Positions 7,318-58,834 are shown, counted from the first letter of the stretch. The stretch is DNA of 64,000 bases from Escherichia coli (GCF_009931435.1 NZ_CP043414.1); one strand, 5' to 3'. Notes: generated from the sequence alone by a model not told the origin. Made by a program: numbers and translations.

Positions 7318-7629
7318 ATGCCTGGAAAAACAGTCGCTCTACCCGATATCGATAAAACGCTGAAAAATGCGCGGGTTGAACTCAAAACCAGTCCCGACGC
7401 CAAAAACAAACTTCGTGAAGCTGCGCAAGCCGTTGGGGTAGATTTAAGCGCTTTTATTTTGAGCGCAGCTATGGAACGCGCCGAAAGTGTGCTTGATAAC
7501 CAACGTCGCCGTGAGCTTTCGAATCAAAGCTGGGAACTGATGAACCAACTCATCGCTGAACCTGCTCAACCGACGCTCGCCCTCAAGGCGTTAATGAAAA
7601 GGAAAAACAGCGATGGTCGACAAGCATGA
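7318..7629 (+). CDS. Type II antitoxin, ribbon-helix-helix DUF1778 family (TacA/AtaR-like)
   Basis: 103 aa from the ATG with RBS aaagagg; N-terminal pattern KNARVELKTSPDAKNKLREAAQAVGVDLSAFILSAAMERAESVL is typical of DUF1778 antitoxins; its stop overlaps the start of the GNAT gene. Confidence 0.75.
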   Translation: MPGKTVALPDIDKTLKNARVELKTSPDAKNKLREAAQAVGVDLSAFILSAAMERAESVLDNQRRRELSNQSWELMNQLIAEPAQPTLALKALMKRKNSDGRQA

Positions 7630-8155
7630 AGAGATTACTCTGCCCATAGTCCTCTCCTGTAATTATCAGTCTGATATTACTTATCCTGGGCAAAAACAGT
7701 TTGATTGCGGTAACCCTGTTATCGATAAATTTGTACGCGCATCGCTAAAGAAAAGTGTGCGTAATAGCGACTGTGCTGCTAAAGCACTTATTGACAGACA
7801 AAGTGGTGAACTGATTGGCATCTGTACTTTTACGGCATATTCGCTGGAAAAACAACGCGTTTCTGGCGTCCTTCAGGGTTCACAACCTTCAGAGATTGGT
7901 GTTGTCAGATTAGTCATGTTAGGGGTAGCGCGGAAATATCAAAAGCGGGGCTTTGGTCAGGACCTACTATGTGATTTTTTTGAACATGTAAAAATAATTC
8001 ACCGGGCATTACCAATTAAAGGGGTTTATCTTGATGCTGACCCTGCCGCCATTAACTTTTATACTCGTCTCGGCTTTGTTCAGCTTTCAGCGAGGCCCAA
8101 TGTTTTCGGTGCTGTACCGATGTTTTTAGCGATTCAGCATATTCTCGCGGCTTAG
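7613..8155 (+). CDS. GNAT-family acetyltransferase toxin (TacT/AtaT/ItaT-like, predicted aminoacyl-tRNA acetyltransferase)
   Basis: 180 aa; FDCG motif near the N-terminus and the acetyl-CoA motif RKYQKRGFGQDLL; 17-nt overlap with the upstream antitoxin. Confidence 0.75.
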   Translation: MVDKHEEITLPIVLSCNYQSDITYPGQKQFDCGNPVIDKFVRASLKKSVRNSDCAAKALIDRQSGELIGICTFTAYSLEKQRVSGVLQGSQPSEIGVVRLVMLGVARKYQKRGFGQDLLCDFFEHVKIIHRALPIKGVYLDADPAAINFYTRLGFVQLSARPNVFGAVPMFLAIQHILAA

Positions 8156-8210
8156 ATTATTATCGCCTCCGGCCATGGCAAGTTTTGCCTCAGCCGGGGA
8201 CTGAGCAGCG

Positions 8211-9146
8211 TTACCACTTTTGTTCAATTGCCCCCGCTTTCATCAGGTCCACATCCTTGCCTTTAATGGTTGCCGTTGCGGCAACCATTGTGGTCCTTAT
8301 TGCTGCACAAGATTTTCGTTCAAATTCCGGTTTATAAAGAATAAGCAACGAATTACTGGTAAATGAATCAAGCCGGTAATCTGTAAAGTTAATATCCAGT
8401 CGGTTTAAGCCGAAAGGTGCAAAGCCGACCGTTTGAATAGTTTCCTTACCTGACGGACTCTTGATGTTGTACGTAACACGAAGATTGGCCACTTCGCCTA
8501 ATTTATTGGTTTTGGCAAAGAGGCTATCCATGCAGGAAAAACCTTTATCTAAAAAATTATCCCGCATTCCAGAACGGGTAATCGTGATCACAGGTAACGT
8601 ATCGTCAACCGTTTTTCTGTCAATCATATCTTTTCGACAGGTGGCCATAAAGTCTTCCGGACCAGTATAAATGTGAACACCCTTATCAAGATATTCTTTC
8701 GCTTTACTACAATCCACCTCGACATACTGACCATTGGCGTACATCATGCCCAACCTGGACCATGCTAAATTCACACCGCGTTGCGTAGCCTGATTAAATA
8801 ACGCATACGCTTTGGCATAATCCACCCGCACCTGTTCACCTTCGTAGTAGATATCCCCCAGCGCTAACGGAGCTTCTTCATCACCTTGTTTAGCGGCTAA
8901 CTCGAACCATTTAATGGCTTCCTGAACGTTGGGTTTGGTATCGTAGCGGGGCTGATAATATTCCCAGCCTAACAGGCTTTGCGCGTCGACATCCCCCGAC
9001 TCAGCCATTTTATACAGTGTCCTTATCACATCGGGGGCAGGCTTTTCACTGTATATGCTGTCATACAATTCATGCGCTTTCTCGCTTGCCAGTGAACCTT
9101 GTGAGGCAATTAATAAAATAGCCAATAAACTCTTTTCATTTAACAT
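8211..9146 (-). CDS. Secreted Sel1-like repeat (TPR-like) protein with a C-terminal domain of unknown function
   Basis: 311 aa; N-terminal signal peptide (LLAILLIASQGSLAS); tandem Sel1-type repeats (AIKWFELAAKQGDEEA..LGDIYYEG...AYALFNQATQRG...LGMMYANG); roughly 170-aa C-terminal region without recognisable motifs. Confidence 0.7.
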   Translation of the reverse strand: MLNEKSLLAILLIASQGSLASEKAHELYDSIYSEKPAPDVIRTLYKMAESGDVDAQSLLGWEYYQPRYDTKPNVQEAIKWFELAAKQGDEEAPLALGDIYYEGEQVRVDYAKAYALFNQATQRGVNLAWSRLGMMYANGQYVEVDCSKAKEYLDKGVHIYTGPEDFMATCRKDMIDRKTVDDTLPVITITRSGMRDNFLDKGFSCMDSLFAKTNKLGEVANLRVTYNIKSPSGKETIQTVGFAPFGLNRLDINFTDYRLDSFTSNSLLILYKPEFERKSCAAIRTTMVAATATIKGKDVDLMKAGAIEQKW

Positions 9147-9562: not shown

Positions 9563-10927
9563 ATGAACGATTATAAAATGACGCCAGGTGAGCGGCGCGC
9601 GACCTGGGGTTTAGGGACCGTATTTTCATTGCGCATGCTGGGCATGTTTATGGTACTGCCGGTTCTAACTACGTACGGTATGGCACTGCAAGGTGCCAGT
9701 GAAGCATTAATCGGTATTGCCATTGGTATTTATGGCCTGACTCAGGCCGTTTTTCAGATTCCGTTTGGCCTGCTCTCAGACCGTATTGGTCGCAAACCAT
9801 TAATTGTCGGCGGGCTGGCGGTGTTTGCTGCCGGTAGTGTTATCGCTGCGCTTTCCGACTCAATCTGGGGAATTATTCTGGGCCGGGCGTTACAAGGTTC
9901 TGGAGCGATTGCCGCTGCCGTTATGGCGCTACTTTCTGATCTCACGCGCGAACAAAACCGCACCAAAGCGATGGCGTTTATCGGCGTGAGTTTTGGCATT
10001 ACCTTCGCCATTGCGATGGTACTTGGCCCTATCATCACTCACAAACTTGGACTGCACGCGCTGTTCTGGATGATCGCTATTCTGGCAACGACCGGTATTG
10101 CGTTGACCATTTGGGTTGTGCCCAACAGCAGCACGCACGTACTTAATCGTGAGTCCGGAATGGTGAAAGGCAGTTTCAGCAAAGTGCTGGCAGAACCGCG
10201 ACTGCTGAAACTCAACTTCGGCATTATGTGTCTGCACATGCTGCTGATGTCGACGTTTGTTGCCCTGCCCGGACAGTTGGCTGATGCGGGGTTCCCGGCG
10301 GCTGAGCACTGGAAGGTCTATCTGGCGACGATGTTAATCGCCTTTGGCTCGGTTGTGCCTTTCATTATCTACGCGGAAGTTAAGCGCAAAATGAAGCAAG
10401 TCTTTGTCTTCTGCGTCGGGCTGATCGTGGTTGCGGAAATTGTGTTGTGGAACGCACAAACGCAGTTCTGGCAACTGGTGGTCGGCGTGCAGCTTTTCTT
10501 TGTGGCGTTTAATTTGATGGAAGCCCTCCTCCCCTCGCTTATCAGTAAAGAGTCGCCAGCCGGTTACAAAGGTACGGCGATGGGCGTTTACTCCACCAGC
10601 CAGTTTCTTGGCGTGGCCATTGGCGGTTCGCTGGGTGGCTGGATTGACGGCATGTTTGACGGTCAGGGCGTATTTCTCGCTGGCGCAATGCTGGCCGCTG
10701 TGTGGCTGGCTGTCGCCAGTACCATGAAAGAACCGCCGTATGTAAGCAGTTTGCGCATTGAAATCCCATCGGACATTGCCGCAAACGAGGCGTTAAAAGT
10801 GCGTTTGCTGGAAACTGCGGGTGTCAAAGAAGTGTTGATTGCAGAAGAAGAACATTCGGCTTACGTGAAAATCGACAGCAAAGTGACGAATCGCTTTGAA
10901 GTTGAACAGGCAATTCGTCAGGCATAA
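9563..10927 (+). CDS. yajR: MFS transporter YajR
   Basis: Start set at MNDYKMTPGE with RBS aagagg; about 454 aa; matches recalled YajR. Confidence 0.92.
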   Translation: MNDYKMTPGERRATWGLGTVFSLRMLGMFMVLPVLTTYGMALQGASEALIGIAIGIYGLTQAVFQIPFGLLSDRIGRKPLIVGGLAVFAAGSVIAALSDSIWGIILGRALQGSGAIAAAVMALLSDLTREQNRTKAMAFIGVSFGITFAIAMVLGPIITHKLGLHALFWMIAILATTGIALTIWVVPNSSTHVLNRESGMVKGSFSKVLAEPRLLKLNFGIMCLHMLLMSTFVALPGQLADAGFPAAEHWKVYLATMLIAFGSVVPFIIYAEVKRKMKQVFVFCVGLIVVAEIVLWNAQTQFWQLVVGVQLFFVAFNLMEALLPSLISKESPAGYKGTAMGVYSTSQFLGVAIGGSLGGWIDGMFDGQGVFLAGAMLAAVWLAVASTMKEPPYVSSLRIEIPSDIAANEALKVRLLETAGVKEVLIAEEEHSAYVKIDSKVTNRFEVEQAIRQA

Positions 10928-10943
10928 AAAACGAGGCGAATTG

Positions 10944-11029
10944 CCTGTTGCGCTACGCTTTTCAGGCCTACAAAGTTCCTGAGTGACAAATCTTTGTAGG
11001 CCAAATCAGGCGTTCATGCCGCATCTGAC
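10944..11029. repeat. REP-like palindromic units between the convergent yajR and yajQ
   Basis: gcctac...gtaggc inverted units and gatgcggcatgaacgcctga (on the minus strand) resemble the REP consensus. Confidence 0.55.
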
Positions 11030-11054
11030 ATGAACAAAGCGCAGGTTGTCGCGA

Positions 11055-11546
11055 TTAATCGCGGAAGTTTTTGAACTGGAACGGCTGACCCAGATCGCCA
11101 CCACGTACCATCGCCATGACAGCCTGCAAATCATCACGAGATTTGCCCGTCACACGGATCTCATCGCCCTGAATTTGCGCCTGCACTTTCAGTTTGCTGT
11201 CTTTGATCATCTTGACGATTTTCTTCTGGGTCGCGCTTTCAATGCCCTGTTTCAGTTTCGCTTCCACAAACCAGGTTTTACCGCTATGAACGATATTTTC
11301 CGGTACATCCAGCGAACTGCCTTCAATGCCGCGCTTCAGTAGCTTGGCACGCAGAATATCCAGCAACTGATTGACCTGGAAGTCGGACTCGCTCAACACT
11401 TTGATGGTTTTGCTGGCGTCGTTCAGCTCAAATGAGGCTTCAACGTTACGGAAGTCAAAACGGGACTCCACTTCGCGGCTCGCGTTATCGACCGCGTTTC
11501 GTGCTTCCTGAAGATCAACTTCAGAGACAATATCGAAAGATGGCAT
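11055..11546 (-). CDS. yajQ: Nucleotide-binding protein YajQ (UPF0234)
   Basis: Start moved to [11 protein letters not shown], giving 163 aa; matches recalled YajQ. Confidence 0.92.
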
Positions 11547-30186: not shown

Positions 30187-31257
30187 TTACTCCCCGACGC
30201 GCTCATTAATTGCCTGCGGATTGTACGTGATAAACATCGCATCACCGTAACTAAAAAAGCGATATTTCTCTTCTACCGCCGCTTTATAGGCGTTCATAGT
30301 GTGTTGATAGCCGGCAAAGGCCGAAACCAGCATAATCAGCGTCGATTCAGGAAGGTGGAAGTTCGTCACCAGCGCATCGACCACTTTGTACTGGAAGCCC
30401 GGATAGATAAAGATTTGGGTATCGTCAAAGAACGGTTCAATGAGATCGTTTTTCGCCGCCTGGGCCGCGCTTTCCAGCGAACGTACCGAGGTGGTGCCAA
30501 CCGCAATCACCCGATTGCCGCGCGCTTTTGCTGCCAGTACCGCGTCTACCACATCCTGCGGCACTTCAGCGTATTCTGAGTGCATGATGTGATCTTCAAT
30601 GGTGTCGACGCGCACCGGCTGGAAAGTACCCGCACCAACGTGCAGAGTTACGAACGCCATCTCCACGCCTTTGGCGCGCAATTTTTCCAGCAAAGGTTCG
30701 TCAAAATGCAGCCCGGCAGTCGGGGCCGCTACCGCGCCCGGTTTTTCACTATAAACTGTTTGATAAAGTTCGCGGTCTGCATCTTCGTCCGGACGGTCGA
30801 TGTACGGCGGCAGCGGCATGTGGCCGATGCTGTTGAGGATATCCAATACTGAACGCTCATCATTAAATTCGACTTCAAACAGTGCGCCGTGGCGAGCGGT
30901 CATTGTTGCGTTGATACTTTCGTCATCGCCCAGCAGCAGCTCTGCGCCCGGTTTTGGCGCTTTCGAGGCGCGAATATGCGCAAGAATGCGTTTGTCGTCG
31001 AGCATACGCTCAACCAGCACTTCAATCTTGCCGCCGCTGGCTTTACGCCCAAACAGGCGCGCCGGGATCACGCGGGTATTATTAAAAACCAGAAGATCGC
31101 CGGGGTTGAGCTTATCGAGTAAATCGGTGAAAGTACCGTGCGTCAGCGCGCCCGTCGGCCCGTCCAGCGACAGTAAACGACAGCTACTGCGTTCAGGCAT
31201 TGGATAGTGGGCAATCAGGGATTCGGGTAATTCAAAGGAGAAATCGGTAACGCGCAT
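30187..31257 (-). CDS. queA: S-adenosylmethionine:tRNA ribosyltransferase-isomerase
   Basis: Track ORF, 356 aa. Confidence 0.95.
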
Positions 31258-31349
31258 GACACTGACTCAGACTAAAATAAGAGGCGGGTAGTCTAGTGCC
31301 GGGGCGCTCTCCCTGCAACCTTTACCCCCCTTTGGATAGAATATAATCG

Positions 31350-31931
31350 ATGAATTTTTTAGCTCACCTGCATCTAGCCCATCTCGCGGAAAGTTCGCTT
31401 TCCGGTAATTTACTGGCTGATTTCGTACGCGGAAATCCTGAAGAAAATTTTCCGCCCGACGTCGTGGCTGGCATTCATATGCATCGCCGTATCGACGTAC
31501 TGACCGATAATCTGCCGGAAGTCCGCGAAGCAAGGGAGTGGTTTCGTCGTGAAACCCGCCGCGTTGCGCCTATTACGCTGGATGTCATGTGGGATCACTT
31601 TCTTTCACGCCACTGGTCGCAGCTATCACCGGACTTTCCGCTACAGGAATTTACCTGTTATGCCCGTGAGCAAGTGATGACTATTCTTCCAGACTCACCG
31701 CCACGCTTTATCAATCTGAACAACTACTTATGGTCTGAGCAATGGCTGGTTCGCTATCGCGATATGGATTTCATCCAGAACGTGTTAAACGGCATGGCAA
31801 GCCGTCGCCCACGTCTGGATGCCCTGCGTGACTCCTGGTACGATTTAGACACCCATTACGACGCCCTGGAAACCCGCTTCTGGCAGTTTTATCCGCGGAT
31901 GATGGCGCAGGCGTCACGCAAGGCGTTATAA
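31350..31931 (+). CDS. acpH: Acyl carrier protein phosphodiesterase
   Basis: Track ORF, 193 aa. Confidence 0.92.
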
Positions 31932-31935
31932 GAGG

Positions 31936-33750
31936 TTAATTCATCCACACCGTAGCCGAAATGGCAGACAAAGCCAGAATCCCGTCCGTCAGTTGCCCAT
32001 GCCCCTCCTTGCGTTGCCATTGCGCGACATTGAGTAACGGCGACGCGGGTAGCACCACTTCACAGGCTTCGCCACGGTTGATAGCCACCAGCACACGCTG
32101 CTGATTCAGCACGCGGACAAATACCACTACGTGATCTTCCGCATATACCACCTGGCAGCCACCACGACGCAGCGCATGGCTTTTCTTACGTAGCGCAATC
32201 ATTCGCTGGTACAGCGCGAATAATGCCGTATCCTGTTTATCCACCTGCCAGGGGAACGGTTTACGGCAAAACGGATCGTTTTTGCCATCCATCCCCACTT
32301 CATCACCGTAATAAATACACGGTATGCCAGGCCAGGTAAGAAGCCAGACCACCGCCAGCGGCAGACGCGCGACATCCCGACCGAGCAGCGTTTTAAATCG
32401 CGCAGTATCGTGGCTGTCGAGCTGATTAAACATGCGCAATTGCTGTTGATGAGAAAGCCCTGCGCGGTAATTATCCATCCAGGCCATACAGGTTTGGGCG
32501 TCAATTTGCTGCGGATCATAAGAGATATCGGTGTTGGCAAGAAATCCCCACAACGGGAATGTGAAGCCGCGATAGTTCATGGCGGCATCTTCCACATCGG
32601 CCTGTAACCATTGCCGTGCATCGCCAAAATGTTCGCCGACTATATACGCTTCCGGTTGGGTTTCTTTCGCGGCTTCGGTGATCCCAGCGACGTGCTGTAA
32701 ATTATTGCGCGCCCCACCCGCTTCTCCCAGCATATGCACCACATCCAGCCGCCAGCCGTCCATATTCCATGGTGCTTTCAGCCAATGGCGGACAATGCTG
32801 TCTTCCCCGCGATAAATTTCATTCACCAGACTTTCCGATTGATAATCCAGCTTCGGCAGGCTGGCATAGCCCAGCCAGTCGAGCGCCGTGCCATCATCGC
32901 TAAATGAGTACCAGTCACGCCAGGGCGATTCGGGGTTGTGACAAGCGCCACCTGTCCCACGATTATGTCGGTCAAACCAGGCATGGGAATCGCCACTGTG
33001 GTTAAACACGCCGTCCAGCACTAGCCGCATTCCCATCTGCTGTGTATTGTTTCGTAAACGCAGCAACGCCCCATCGCCGCCAAACTGCGGATCGACATGG
33101 CGATAATCCTCGGTATCGTATTTGTGTACGCTGGGAGCTTTAAACACCGGATTAAGATACAACGCCGTCACGCCAAGTTTTTTCAGATACGGCAGTTTTT
33201 CGCTGATACCATCCAGATCACCGCCATAGAACGTTGATCCGCCCGCCTGCGCCGTGACCGGCTCATCCCAGTCACGCAAGATGATCTCTTGTCCGGCTGC
33301 GTGATGGTAATAGATATGATCCTGTTCAGCTTCGCGAGGAAGACTACGGGCGAAACGATCAGGAAAGATCTGATAAAAAATCTGATCCGCAGCCCATTGT
33401 GGGCCGATATCCGGGACATCGACGGCAAACTGCTCCAGTCGTGCTGGCGGCATTCGGCTGAAGCCCTGCGGTGTAAACCAACGCTGGCGATCGTGCCACA
33501 ATAATTTGAAGCTATAGCGCCGCCGGGGTTGCCCAATGGAAATATCGATGGCCGCCCGCCATGCCGTGACACCAGGCTGGGGCTGACTGCGCTGCTTATG
33601 CATCGGTACTGACGTTTCTTCGTTATCGTTTTCTGTACGTAGCATAATCCGCTGAGGTGGGTCTTCGCCTGTCAGCCACAGTGTAATGAGTAGTTGATCT
33701 TTGCTTTGTTTAACAAATGGGGGCACCGGCAGGTGCCATGCATTTAACAT
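31936..33750 (-). CDS. malZ: Maltodextrin glucosidase
   Basis: Track ORF begins MM; start set at the second M ([12 protein letters not shown]), giving 604 aa; GH13 alpha-amylase-family motifs. Confidence 0.92.
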
Positions 33751-33863
33751 CATAATTCCCCTGTGATGAAAATCTGATCACCTTGCCATAGCCTAATGCA
33801 GGATCACTCATCATCTGAAGGATATTTGGGGGAGGAGGACGGGGGCGGATAACTTTCGGAATA

Positions 33864-33893
33864 GCCGGATCAGGGCTTGCCTTGATCCGGCTT
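33864..33893 (-). terminator. Hairpin after the proY stop
   Basis: gccggatcag...ttgatccggc inverted repeat. Confidence 0.4.
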
Positions 33894-33907
33894 ACAGAAC
33901 GCAGTGA

Positions 33908-35281
33908 TTAGTGATTTTCAGCCAGCTGACGATCGTGGCGGCGTTTAAACATCCAGCCAATCAACAGCAGAACAATCCACGCGAAACCAACGTACAGCGA
34001 GATACGTGTGTCCGGATGATAACCAATCAATCCGATAATAAAGAGCAGGAAAATCAAACCGCCGATGGTCGTTGCTACCCCACCTGGTACTTTAAATTTC
34101 AGTGCCTTCACTTCTTCTGGCGGCAAACGGCGACGGAAAGCAATTTGCGACAGCAGGATCATAATCCATACCCACACCGTGGCGAAGGTTGCCAGCGAAG
34201 CGATCACCAGGAAGACATTTTCCGGCATGATGTAGTTCAGATATACCGCAAACAATAGCGCGGTAGTCATCACCAGCACCGTGACCCACGGAATACCGCG
34301 ACGCGAGGTTTTGCTGAAAATTTTCGGCGCGCTACCCTGCTCTGCCATGCCGTGAAGCATACGACCTACGCCAAATACGTCACTGTTAATTGCTGACAGC
34401 GAAGCGGTCAGCACAACAAAGTTAAGAATGCTGGCGGCAAAGGTAATGCCCATATGCTGGAACGTCAGCACGAACGGGCTACCGGCAGTGCCAACCTGAT
34501 TCCACGGATAGATAGACATAATGACGAACAGCGTACCGACGTAGAACACCAGAATACGCATCGGCACGGAGTTAATCGCACGCGGAATCGATTTTTCCGG
34601 ATCTTTCGCTTCCCCGGCGGTAATACCGATAATTTCGATCCCGCCGTAAGCAAACATTACCATTTGCAGCGACATCACCATGCCAAGCCAGCCGTTGCTG
34701 AAGAAGCCGCCGTTGCTCCAAAGATTATGGATACCGGTCGGTTGCCCGCCGTTGCCAATCCCCCAGATGATGATGCCGAAACCGGCGACAATCATGATAA
34801 TGATGGTGGCGACTTTAAAGAACGAAAACCAGAACTCAAGCTCACCAAATACTTTCACGCTCATCAGGTTTACGGCGCAAATGATCAGCACCACGCTCAG
34901 TACCCAAATCCAGTGCGGCACCGTCGGGAACCAGACGCCCATATAGATACCGAAAGCGGTCACATCGGCGATGGCGACAATAAGGATTTCAAAGCAGTAG
35001 GTCCAGCCAGTGATATAACCTGCCAGTGGACCGAGGTTTTCCTGCGCATAGCGCGAGAAAGAGCTGGCTGCCGGGTTATGTACCGACATTTCCCCCAGCG
35101 CACGCATAATGATATACGCCGCGATACCACCGATAATATAGGCCAACAACACGCTCGGACCGGCCATTTTGATGGCGTCTGCCGAACCGTAAAACAACCC
35201 GGTGCCAATTGCTGAACCCAGTGCCATAAAGCGTATGTGTCGGGTACTTAGCCCACGCTTTAGCTTGTTCTTACTTTCCAT
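33908..35281 (-). CDS. proY: Proline-specific permease (APC family)
   Basis: Track ORF begins MM; second M used ([10 protein letters not shown]); about 457 aa. Confidence 0.92.
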
Positions 35282-52818: not shown

Positions 52819-53628
52819 ATGGAAAAGAAAATCGGTTTTATTGGCTGCGGCAATATGGGAAAAGCCATTCTCGGCGGTCTGATTGCCAGCGGTCAGGTGC
52901 TTCCAGGGCAAATCTGGGTATATACCCCCTCCCCGGATAAAGTCGCCGCCCTGCATGACCAGTTCGGCATCAACGCCGCAGAATCGGCGCAAGAAGTGGC
53001 GCAAATCGCCGACATCATTTTCGCCGCCGTTAAACCAGGCATCATGATTAAAGTGCTTAGCGAAATCACCTCCAGCCTGAATAAAGACTCTCTGGTCGTT
53101 TCTATTGCTGCGGGTGTCACGCTCGACCAGCTTGCCCGCGCGCTGGGCCATGACCGGAAAATTATCCGCGCCATGCCGAACACTCCCGCACTGGTTAATG
53201 CCGGGATGACCTCCGTAACGCCAAACGCGCTGGTAACCCCAGAAGATACCGCTGATGTGCTGAATATTTTCCGCTGCTTTGGCGAAGCGGAAGTAATTGC
53301 CGAGCCGATGATCCACCCGGTGGTCGGTGTGAGCGGTTCTTCGCCAGCCTACGTCTTTATGTTTATCGAGGCGATGGCCGACGCCGCCGTGCTGGGCGGG
53401 ATGCCACGCGCCCAGGCGTATAAATTTGCCGCTCAGGCGGTAATGGGTTCCGCAAAAATGGTGCTGGAAACGGGAGAACATCCGGGGGCACTGAAAGATA
53501 TGGTCTGCTCACCGGGAGGCACCACCATTGAGGCGGTACGCGTACTGGAAGAGAAAGGCTTCCGTGCCGCAGTGATCGAAGCGATGACGAAGTGTATGGA
53601 AAAATCAGAAAAACTCAGCAAATCCTGA
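52819..53628 (+). CDS. proC: Pyrroline-5-carboxylate reductase
   Basis: Start moved to [14 protein letters not shown] (Rossmann motif), giving 269 aa. Confidence 0.94.
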
Positions 53629-53644
53629 TGACTTTCGCCGGACG

Positions 53645-54760
53645 TCAGGCCGCCACTTCGGTGCGGTTACGTCCGGCTTTCTTTGCTTTGTAGAGCGCCA
53701 AATCTGCCGATTTCAACCACTCCCGATAGTGACTCATTTGTGGATTCAGCGGCGCGACACCCACACTAATCCGTAACATCACCTGCGGTGTATTCGGCAA
53801 ACGTAACGTATTTAGCCCTTCATGTACCCGTAACATGGCGGTAATGGCGCTCTCAGCTGGCGTACCGGACATGATCACCGCAAACTCATCGCCACCAAAC
53901 CGACCAATCACATCGCTACCGCGCAGGGTAATTTGTAATTGTCGGGTAAGCGCCACAATCGCTTCATCGCCCACATCATGGCCCCAGGTATCGTTGATGC
54001 TCTTGAAATGGTCGATATCGATAATCAGTAACGTCGCATCGCGGTTATGCCGCCGACAGTTATCAAATTCATTGCGTAACATAGTTTCCCAATGACGTCG
54101 GTTATACACGCCCGTCATACCGTCGCGGGTACTCATGACCTGCAATCGGCGTTTATGTTCCGCCAGTTTAGTCGCCGTCTGGTAGCTGACCCAACCAAAC
54201 AGCAGAGGATAAATGACGATAATGGGAAGGGAGAGCCACCATTCCAGCGGCGCACTATTGAACGACACGGTGATACCCGTCAGTTCGAGGGTGACAAGGC
54301 AGGAAACCACCATCAACACCAGACCCGCGACAAACAGACGGGGGCCGCCTGCCCCCATCAAATTCAGACACATAATCATCAACATCGCGGTGGAAGGCAG
54401 CACGTTTACGCCCATTACGCCTACCCACATTCCCGCTAATACTGCATCGGTTTTTAAGTTATAAATTTCCCGGCTAAGCGGATCGACAGCCCTACTCGCA
54501 ATCTGCCAGGCTAAATGCGGCCAGACGAACGCCCAGCCGACCAACACCAGCCACCACCAGCCCGGCGGCGGGTGCGAAACCAGCGTTGAAGCAATCGGTA
54601 AGAACATGCCAGCCAGGCCAACCGCGCGGGGTAGTCTGACGCGACGGGCGAAGCGCAGCCCGGACCGCTGATGTTCGTTTTGAGGAGTTAAAGGAGGTTC
54701 CTCCCCATGCGCCGCCGCTTTTTTGAAAAAGTTTTCATCATTCATTATTTTTGGGAACAT
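53645..54760 (-). CDS. dgcC: Diguanylate cyclase (AdrA/DgcC)
   Basis: Track ORF, 371 aa; N-terminal membrane (MASE2-like) region and GGDEF motif RFGGDEF. Confidence 0.93.
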   Translation of the reverse strand: MFPKIMNDENFFKKAAAHGEEPPLTPQNEHQRSGLRFARRVRLPRAVGLAGMFLPIASTLVSHPPPGWWWLVLVGWAFVWPHLAWQIASRAVDPLSREIYNLKTDAVLAGMWVGVMGVNVLPSTAMLMIMCLNLMGAGGPRLFVAGLVLMVVSCLVTLELTGITVSFNSAPLEWWLSLPIIVIYPLLFGWVSYQTATKLAEHKRRLQVMSTRDGMTGVYNRRHWETMLRNEFDNCRRHNRDATLLIIDIDHFKSINDTWGHDVGDEAIVALTRQLQITLRGSDVIGRFGGDEFAVIMSGTPAESAITAMLRVHEGLNTLRLPNTPQVMLRISVGVAPLNPQMSHYREWLKSADLALYKAKKAGRNRTEVAA

Positions 54761-58634: not shown

Positions 58635-58640
58635 TTTTTA

Positions 58641-58670
58641 AATGCCCAATAACTGTTATTGGGCATTTAA
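58641..58670 (+). terminator. Hairpin after the ddlA stop
   Basis: atgcccaataa-c-tgttattgggcat palindrome followed by ttaa. Confidence 0.5.
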
Positions 58671-58682
58671 GACTGTAAGATT

Positions 58683-58771
58683 GCCTGATGCGCTTTGCTT
58701 ATCAGGCCTACAAGATAATTGCAATATACTGATTTTGTAGGCAGGATAAGGCGTTCGCGCCGCATCCGGCA
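58683..58771. repeat. Pair of REP elements (BIME-like) after ddlA
   Basis: gcctgatgcgctttgcttatcaggcctac and gtaggcaggataaggcgttcgcgccgcatccggca. Confidence 0.8.
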
Positions 58772-58801
58772 AAAACAACGAGCACTTTGTCAGCCCCCAG
58801 A

Positions 58802-58834
58802 ACGCCCAATCCTCTGTTATTGGGCGTTTTCAGT
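58802..58834 (+). terminator. Hairpin plus T-run (plus strand) that spans the yaiZ stop codon
   Basis: cgcccaat-cctctgtt-attgggcg followed by ttttcagttt. Confidence 0.4.

Follow-up and report, generated by a model that had tools for sequence, protein, structure and literature searches.

The convergent genes acpH and malZ end 4 bp apart, with no terminator between them, in the DNA analyzed here, a 64,000-nucleotide stretch of one strand from Escherichia coli (GCF_009931435.1, NZ_CP043414.1; hereafter the window, with positions counted from its first nucleotide). The junction is real but ordinary, and is routine in E. coli. We estimate a probability of about 80% that it represents a tight tail-to-tail junction of two intact, unrelated genes, which would have been formed by loss of DNA, would be read through for lack of a terminator and would have its transcripts ended by Rho. 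According to this reading, an Escherichia ancestor would have lost the DNA downstream of acpH, comprising a co-directional peroxiredoxin gene and often further genes before malZ, and this loss would have left only 4 bp between the two stops. The resulting spacer would have no sequence function, and RNA polymerase leaving either gene would continue into the antisense strand of the other, where release of the ribosome at the stop codon would leave untranslated RNA that permits Rho termination inside the opposing gene.

Both genes are intact and their stop codons are 4 bp apart

The acpH coding sequence, which encodes an acyl carrier protein phosphodiesterase of 193 aa, occupies 31350–31931 on the + strand and terminates in the TAA codon at 31929–31931. 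The malZ coding sequence, which encodes a maltodextrin glucosidase of 605 aa, occupies 31936–33753 on the − strand, and its TAA stop codon (31938–31936) reads TTA on the + strand. Between the two stops lies the spacer GAGG (31932–31935), and the + strand text at the junction is ...AAG GCG TTA TAA GAGG TTA ATT CAT CCA.... The genes were assigned from the ORF list, Pfam, NCBIfam and RefSeq, and the stop codons and spacer were read directly from the sequence. The initial annotation had placed the stops at 31931 and 31936, about 4 bp apart; the sequence and the six-frame ORFs confirm both coordinates exactly and give a gap of exactly 4 bp. Thus, even with the stops included, there is no coding overlap between acpH and malZ in the window (gap +4 bp). 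The two genes are opposite-strand neighbors with facing 3′ ends in the window, in E. coli 2013C-4282, which is the closest complete genome, and in K-12, and the RefSeq annotation shows an identical 4-bp gap in 2013C-4282 and in K-12 MG1655 (malZ end, 424332; acpH, 424337–424918).

Both acpH and malZ are intact and full length. AcpH matches Pfam ACP_PD over residues 1–184 (E = 1e-59) and the NCBIfam equivalog PRK10045 over residues 1–193 of 193, and MalZ matches Pfam Alpha-amylase (E = 3e-82) and the NCBIfam equivalog PRK10785, with residues 1–605 aligned against 1–606 of 607. Because the equivalog models cover AcpH and MalZ end to end, neither stop is an artefact. Indeed, the idea that one of the stops is an annotation error, not a real gene end, and that the true spacing is larger is almost certainly wrong and is refuted by three observations: both proteins match their NCBIfam models through to the last residue; AcpH is 193 aa long in most of the Enterobacterales loci listed, including all whose AcpH is at least 62% identical to that of the window; and other genera have ...ISASVWMGH or a similar end aligned with the MalZ C-terminus, ...ISATVWMN. 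The Escherichia MalZ end (...VWMN) is a single residue shorter than that of Citrobacter (...VWMGH).

The spacer carries no detectable signal

The initial annotation had held that the junction leaves no room for separate terminators, and this stands, as 4 bases are too few and our scans found no terminator near the junction. A consensus terminator scan over 31000–34200 on both strands, with an expectation derived from shuffled sequence, revealed no terminator-like site downstream of either stop; its two matches both lie within malZ on the − strand, and 3.1 were expected from the shuffles. A relaxed scan of the 800 nt beyond both stops, for hairpins of −7 kcal/mol or lower followed by 8 nt containing 4 or more U, yielded only loose hairpins with poor U tracts, 120–740 nt away. 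A hidden terminator near the junction is ruled out by the consensus and relaxed scans.

On each strand, a 221-nt RNA spanning the junction folded no more stably than shuffled sequence (z = +0.79 and −0.46), and no palindrome spanning the junction was found. Rfam returned no match over the whole window at the gathering threshold and none at E ≤ 1 over 31200–32700. The shuffled-level folding and the lack of Rfam matches rule out both a structured RNA and an sRNA there. The sole small ORF that spans the spacer, a 43-aa frame on the − strand (31889–32020), is contained wholly within the sequence of the two genes and was rejected as being without support.

Comparison with K-12 revealed no extra purifying selection beside the junction, as measured by the density of substitutions between the window and K-12: acpH has 5 substitutions in its last 150 nt and 5.5% gene-wide, and the corresponding values for malZ are 13 and 6.6%. 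The sequence of the spacer differs by lineage, being GAGG in the window, AACG in E. coli and GGTA in E. albertii, with a length of 4 bp in all three. The spacer is, by these measures, kept in length only and without detectable signal.

Tight convergent junctions are a common class in E. coli

To provide a baseline we used the convergent CDS pairs in six 50-kb stretches spread evenly over the K-12 annotation (300 kb, 47 pairs). The median convergent gap among these 47 pairs is 45 bp. Nine of the 47 (19%, Wilson 95% CI 10–33%) have a gap of 4 bp or less, six of these nine being 4-nt stop-codon overlaps (−4), and in 11 of the 47 the gap is at most 11 bp; no gap of 12–30 bp occurs. The K-12 gaps thus have a two-humped distribution, with a spacer-less class and a class of 31–168 bp that has room for a hairpin, and the empty 12–30 bp range is consistent with a minimum size for hairpin terminators. 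In a 2026 preprint that considered 704 convergent E. coli pairs, 207 with REPs were removed, as were those with zero, negative or over-long distances, and 383 of the 704 were retained. This filter leaves at most ~114 pairs in the zero, negative or over-long group, consistent with the frequency in the K-12 sample.

In the window and its immediate continuation, the convergent gaps are 55, 127, 53, 53, 217, 4, ~137, 77, 16, 182 and 57 bp, and acpH/malZ is the tightest of the 11 convergent pairs in the window. Its gap is small, yet it is a member of a common E. coli class. The second-tightest pair, proC (+) and adrA (−), has 16 bp between its stops (53628–53645), which is also too short for a terminator, and just beyond the end of the window the ampH/iprA gap, as seen in the reference strain, is 0 bp. 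The ddlA/yaiZ intergenic region (58635–58816) is 182 bp long in the window versus 21 bp in 2013C-4282; the additional ~160 bp (about 58669–58800) contains REP-like palindromes and follows a perfect hairpin with 16-bp arms (58638–58670), one arm of which is repeated at 58814–58829.

Transcripts of the two genes overlap in K-12

A complete acpH or malZ mRNA must extend into the opposite gene because the mRNA includes the stop codon and there is no terminator in the next 4 bases. As each transcript enters the antisense strand of the opposite gene, the mRNA 3′ ends are complementary when both genes are transcribed. That each transcript runs into the other gene had been proposed in the initial annotation, and the proposal is supported both by the absence of a terminator and by published K-12 RNA-seq overlap. 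All of the RNA evidence comes from K-12, which is ~95% identical to the window across the region.

Transcript overlap of the malZ-acpH pair has been reported previously in K-12. The ExcludonFinder study (Nucleic Acids Res. 2025, PMC12288877) names malZ-acpH as one of the 165 convergent K-12 pairs whose transcripts overlap, the criterion for listing being overlapping transcription in at least 50% of 58 RNA-seq samples. In K-12 total RNA-seq (PMC7373196, Table S1c), the antisense:sense ratio is ~0.33 for malZ and yajB (acpH) and ~0.04 for the comparison genes brnQ and tgt; these ratios establish transcription of both strands but do not tell the strands apart, because the strand labels conflict with those in Table S1b. 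The labels that conflict between Tables S1b and S1c are those for yajB, queA and phoB. The same study found p19-captured dsRNA reads in both malZ and acpH.

The supplementary data of that study also show weak expression of both genes in K-12. Neither a 3′ end nor a Rho region is entered for acpH or malZ, or at coordinates 4241xx–4246xx, in the curated K-12 Term-seq and bicyclomycin tables (PMC7815308), and the SMRT-Cappable-seq supplement (PMC6131387) has no entry for these genes or coordinates. The low expression of acpH and malZ is the probable reason for the empty 3′-end tables. Mapped 3′ ends inside the coding sequences, the finding that according to the initial annotation would speak against mutual read-through, are therefore not seen in the curated Term-seq tables (PMC7815308), and the empty bicyclomycin table is uninformative at low expression.

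These RNA data bear on a second explanation of the junction, in which acpH and malZ form a functional excludon whose overlap was selected, such that maltodextrins, by inducing malZ, would repress acpH expression (or acpH would act likewise on malZ), by means of transcriptional interference and RNase III cutting of the complementary 3′ ends. The presence of the pair on the published K-12 list is in line with this explanation, as are the p19-captured dsRNA reads from both genes. As a class, excludon pairs show mutually exclusive single-cell expression and higher synteny, and the ExcludonFinder authors regard such convergent overlaps as regulatory (PMC12288877). The spacer and its flanking codons, by contrast, show no extra conservation, and there is no evident functional link between the two proteins, since AcpH acts in the turnover of the ACP prosthetic group and MalZ in maltodextrin hydrolysis.

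Adjacency of acpH and malZ is restricted to few genera among the loci listed

The acpH locus was compared across Enterobacterales by scanning one genome per bacterial or archaeal species with a degenerate DNA pattern for the AcpH N-terminus, which yielded at least 120 loci. Among the matches listed, at least 52 loci from more than 20 Enterobacterales genera carry a co-directional gene for a 200-aa peroxiredoxin 72–260 bp after acpH, and at two further loci the peroxiredoxin gene lies 1.4–1.6 kb from acpH. The product of this gene matches NCBIfam PRK15000 (peroxiredoxin C) over residues 1–200 of 200. The genera that bear it include Citrobacter, Enterobacter, Klebsiella, Serratia, Yersinia, Erwinia, Dickeya and Pectobacterium, as well as Photorhabdus, Xenorhabdus, Edwardsiella, Hafnia, Morganella and others. 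In these other Enterobacterales, malZ is convergent and 0.9–5.3 kb away where it falls within the flank taken, and is otherwise absent from that flank.

The peroxiredoxin gene after acpH is missing, among the matches listed, in Escherichia, Siccibacter and a few others. Only in Escherichia (the window, E. coli and E. albertii) and Siccibacter colletis, among the same matches, is it missing with malZ abutting acpH. In S. colletis the acpH and malZ stops share the palindrome CTAG in a 4-nt overlap (the −4 form), and in Phytobacter massiliensis, where the peroxiredoxin gene is likewise gone, the acpH stop is directly abutted (0 bp) by the end of a different convergent gene. From this comparison, with the peroxiredoxin gene or several kb separating the genes elsewhere and abutting genes only in Escherichia and Siccibacter among the matches listed, the 4-bp junction emerges as a derived state within Escherichia. 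It arose by loss of the intervening DNA up to the stop codons before the sampled Escherichia lineages diverged. The restriction of the adjacency to these two genera among the matches listed argues against a functional excludon.

The window is collinear with E. coli 2013C-4282 and 98.6% identical to it over 50 kb; it is ~95.5% identical to K-12 over the 8-kb neighborhood (brnQ–tgt) and 91–94% identical to E. albertii. These values point to a window lineage that is a somewhat divergent Escherichia, not a typical E. coli. Elsewhere in the window, at ~7318–9146 between cyoE and yajR, the gene calls, which follow the annotation of the closest genome (2013C-4282), comprise a DUF1778 protein and a GNAT acetyltransferase, which resemble a toxin-antitoxin pair, followed by a convergent gene for a TPR protein.

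An islet separates acpH and malZ in one-fifth of E. coli genomes

The junction is uninterrupted in 4294 of 5426 complete E. coli genomes, and the full-length matches that were inspected have equal query and subject spans with no indel. A break in the match at the final acpH codon marks 1128 of the 5426 genomes. The DNA responsible, which lies outside the window, was found in exactly 1128 genomes (~21% of E. coli), always in single copy and always chromosomal; its carriers include O157:H7 and O55:H7 strains. In the two genomes that were opened, O157:H7 F7386 and LHM10-1, this islet is situated between the stops, at the position equivalent to 31932–31935 of the window, and measures 1653 or 1677 bp (9633–11285 in locus L131 and 9633–11309 in locus L132). 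Its G + C content is 33–43%, compared to 53–55% in the flanks. In both genomes it contains a single gene for a hypothetical protein of 481–489 aa, on the malZ strand and 20 bp from the acpH stop, and an 11-bp inverted repeat is present within the 187 bp after malZ.

Empty and occupied alleles have sequence in common up to ...CAAGGCG of acpH and again from the malZ stop on, and the occupied allele continues past the acpH stop with AAC, as found in the K-12 spacer. As the islet is foreign in composition and the site is empty in E. albertii and the window lineage, the simplest history would be insertion of the islet into a pre-existing tight junction.

The islet protein (466–493 aa; e.g. WP_000155944.1) has no relative in Pfam, PADLOC, NCBIfam, PHROG or the PDB. 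Among 120 of its 379 homologues listed, all those with a named source come from Escherichia or Enterobacteriaceae and none is below 88% identity, and a search of 1.84 billion representative proteins recovered its own fragments and one marginal match (E = 8e-4). Its AlphaFold model is unusable, with a mean pLDDT of 35.5. On the strength of these searches we consider the protein an orphan, without a convincing relative outside its own Escherichia/Enterobacteriaceae-labelled family.

The islet also bears on the idea of a functional excludon. Since it separates the pair in 1128 of the 5426 genomes, by 1.65 kb, coupling between malZ and acpH appears to be dispensable.

Composition points to Rho as the probable terminating factor

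RNA past a stop codon is not translated, and it is on untranslated RNA that Rho acts in E. coli. The RNA past the acpH stop, which is antisense to the malZ 3′ end, has a C/G ratio of 1.1–1.9 (78-nt windows) over its first ~420 nt, with a peak of 1.75–1.93 at +121 to +200, compared to a window-wide 95th percentile of 1.72. This composition marks 31932–32350 on the + strand as a candidate zone for Rho loading and termination. The RNA downstream of malZ, which is antisense to acpH, is G-rich, its C/G ratio being mostly 0.6–1.2 with one window of 1.5 at +341. From these data we infer that Rho most likely ends the read-through inside the opposing gene, and that its action should be efficient for acpH transcripts and less so for malZ transcripts. 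Rho is known, in general, to suppress untranslated and antisense transcription in E. coli (PMC6061677, PMC7815308).

Some malZ transcripts may even cross acpH toward queA. Their path on the − strand (31258–31935) consists of antisense acpH (582 nt) and the 92-bp queA-acpH intergenic region, followed by queA, which is on the same strand and 674 nt from the malZ stop; neither scan detected a terminator-like site on this path. Read-through to the queA operon is conceivable because there is no terminator-like site before queA and antisense acpH is a poor Rho substrate. A bolder proposal, that maltodextrin-induced malZ read-through into queA-tgt-yajC-secDF lowers AcpH and raises transcription of the queuosine and Sec genes, and does so only in Escherichia with the 4-bp junction, is in our estimate decidedly improbable. 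Were it correct, malZ-to-queA read-through would be absent from the 21% of E. coli in which the genes are kept apart by the AT-rich islet and its inverted repeat.

Termination might also be driven by collision or assisted by hairpins, with converging RNA polymerases halting each other at an overlapping bidirectional terminator. Such a mechanism, independent of Rho and of canonical terminators, was proposed from SEnd-seq data for many E. coli convergent pairs (bioRxiv 10.1101/2022.10.23.513370). However, it needs a pausing hairpin in the overlap, and at acpH/malZ the folding is no better than shuffled and the junction is spanned by no palindrome. Moreover, with both genes weakly expressed in K-12, head-on encounters between polymerases would be rare. 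We thus regard collision-driven termination as very unlikely here, and Rho termination of the read-through RNA as the favored mechanism.

Discussion

Our analyses favor an ordinary tight junction, which DNA loss would have created and at which Rho would end the read-through transcripts. The most serious competing explanation, the functional excludon, draws on published transcript overlap and dsRNA in K-12; the narrow distribution of the adjacency, its interruption by the islet, the unexceptional conservation of the spacer and the unrelated functions of the two proteins all speak against it. We consider this explanation unlikely overall, and likewise infer that a selected regulatory role for the overlap is unlikely. 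The acpH/malZ pair is one of roughly 100 E. coli pairs spaced too closely for a terminator, whose 3′ transcripts therefore overlap, and as such is already catalogued.

The site nevertheless offers a clean natural example of a locus in three states: with the peroxiredoxin gene in other genera, with the 4-bp junction, and with the 1.65-kb islet in 21% of E. coli. Comparing the three states could test the regulatory cost or benefit of convergent overlap. The most useful by-products of this work are the history of the site through these states and the islet with its orphan gene, both of which lie outside the window.

Several known arrangements at convergent 3′ ends can be compared with the acpH/malZ junction. 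Bidirectional intrinsic terminators and REP elements are likewise located between the 3′ ends of convergent genes. However, they need ~30 bp or more of palindromic intergenic DNA, whereas the acpH/malZ spacer is 4 bp with no hairpin; the G + C-rich palindrome with A and T tracts that characterizes a bidirectional intrinsic terminator is not present between the acpH and malZ stops. The junction is in this respect also unlike other convergent pairs in the window, which have gaps of 53–217 bp with visible hairpins. Known Rho substrates are C-rich and G-poor, as is the RNA downstream of acpH, and the RNA beyond both stops is untranslated antisense. Compared to Rho-dependent termination elsewhere in E. 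coli, the assignment to Rho at acpH/malZ is a putative one, made by composition.

Among the K-12 convergent excludons (PMC12288877), the closest counterpart is the orthologous malZ-acpH pair itself, which is listed there and has the same genes, orientation and 4-bp gap as the window. A conserved regulatory device is nonetheless a poor match for an arrangement that is lineage-restricted and interrupted by an islet in about one-fifth of E. coli. Further counterparts are the K-12 pairs with abutting or overlapping convergent stops, namely zapC/ycbX, yccX/tusE, flk/yfcJ, yicG/ligB, purR/punR and yjfP/ulaR, which form the −4 class, together with the other close pairs ydhK/sodC (at 0) and yicL/nlpA (at +3). 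All of these eight except yicL/nlpA are on the excludon list. The coding sequences at the acpH/malZ junction do not overlap, being spaced at +4 in place of the common −4, and the junction belongs with all eight to the same class of terminator-less junctions.
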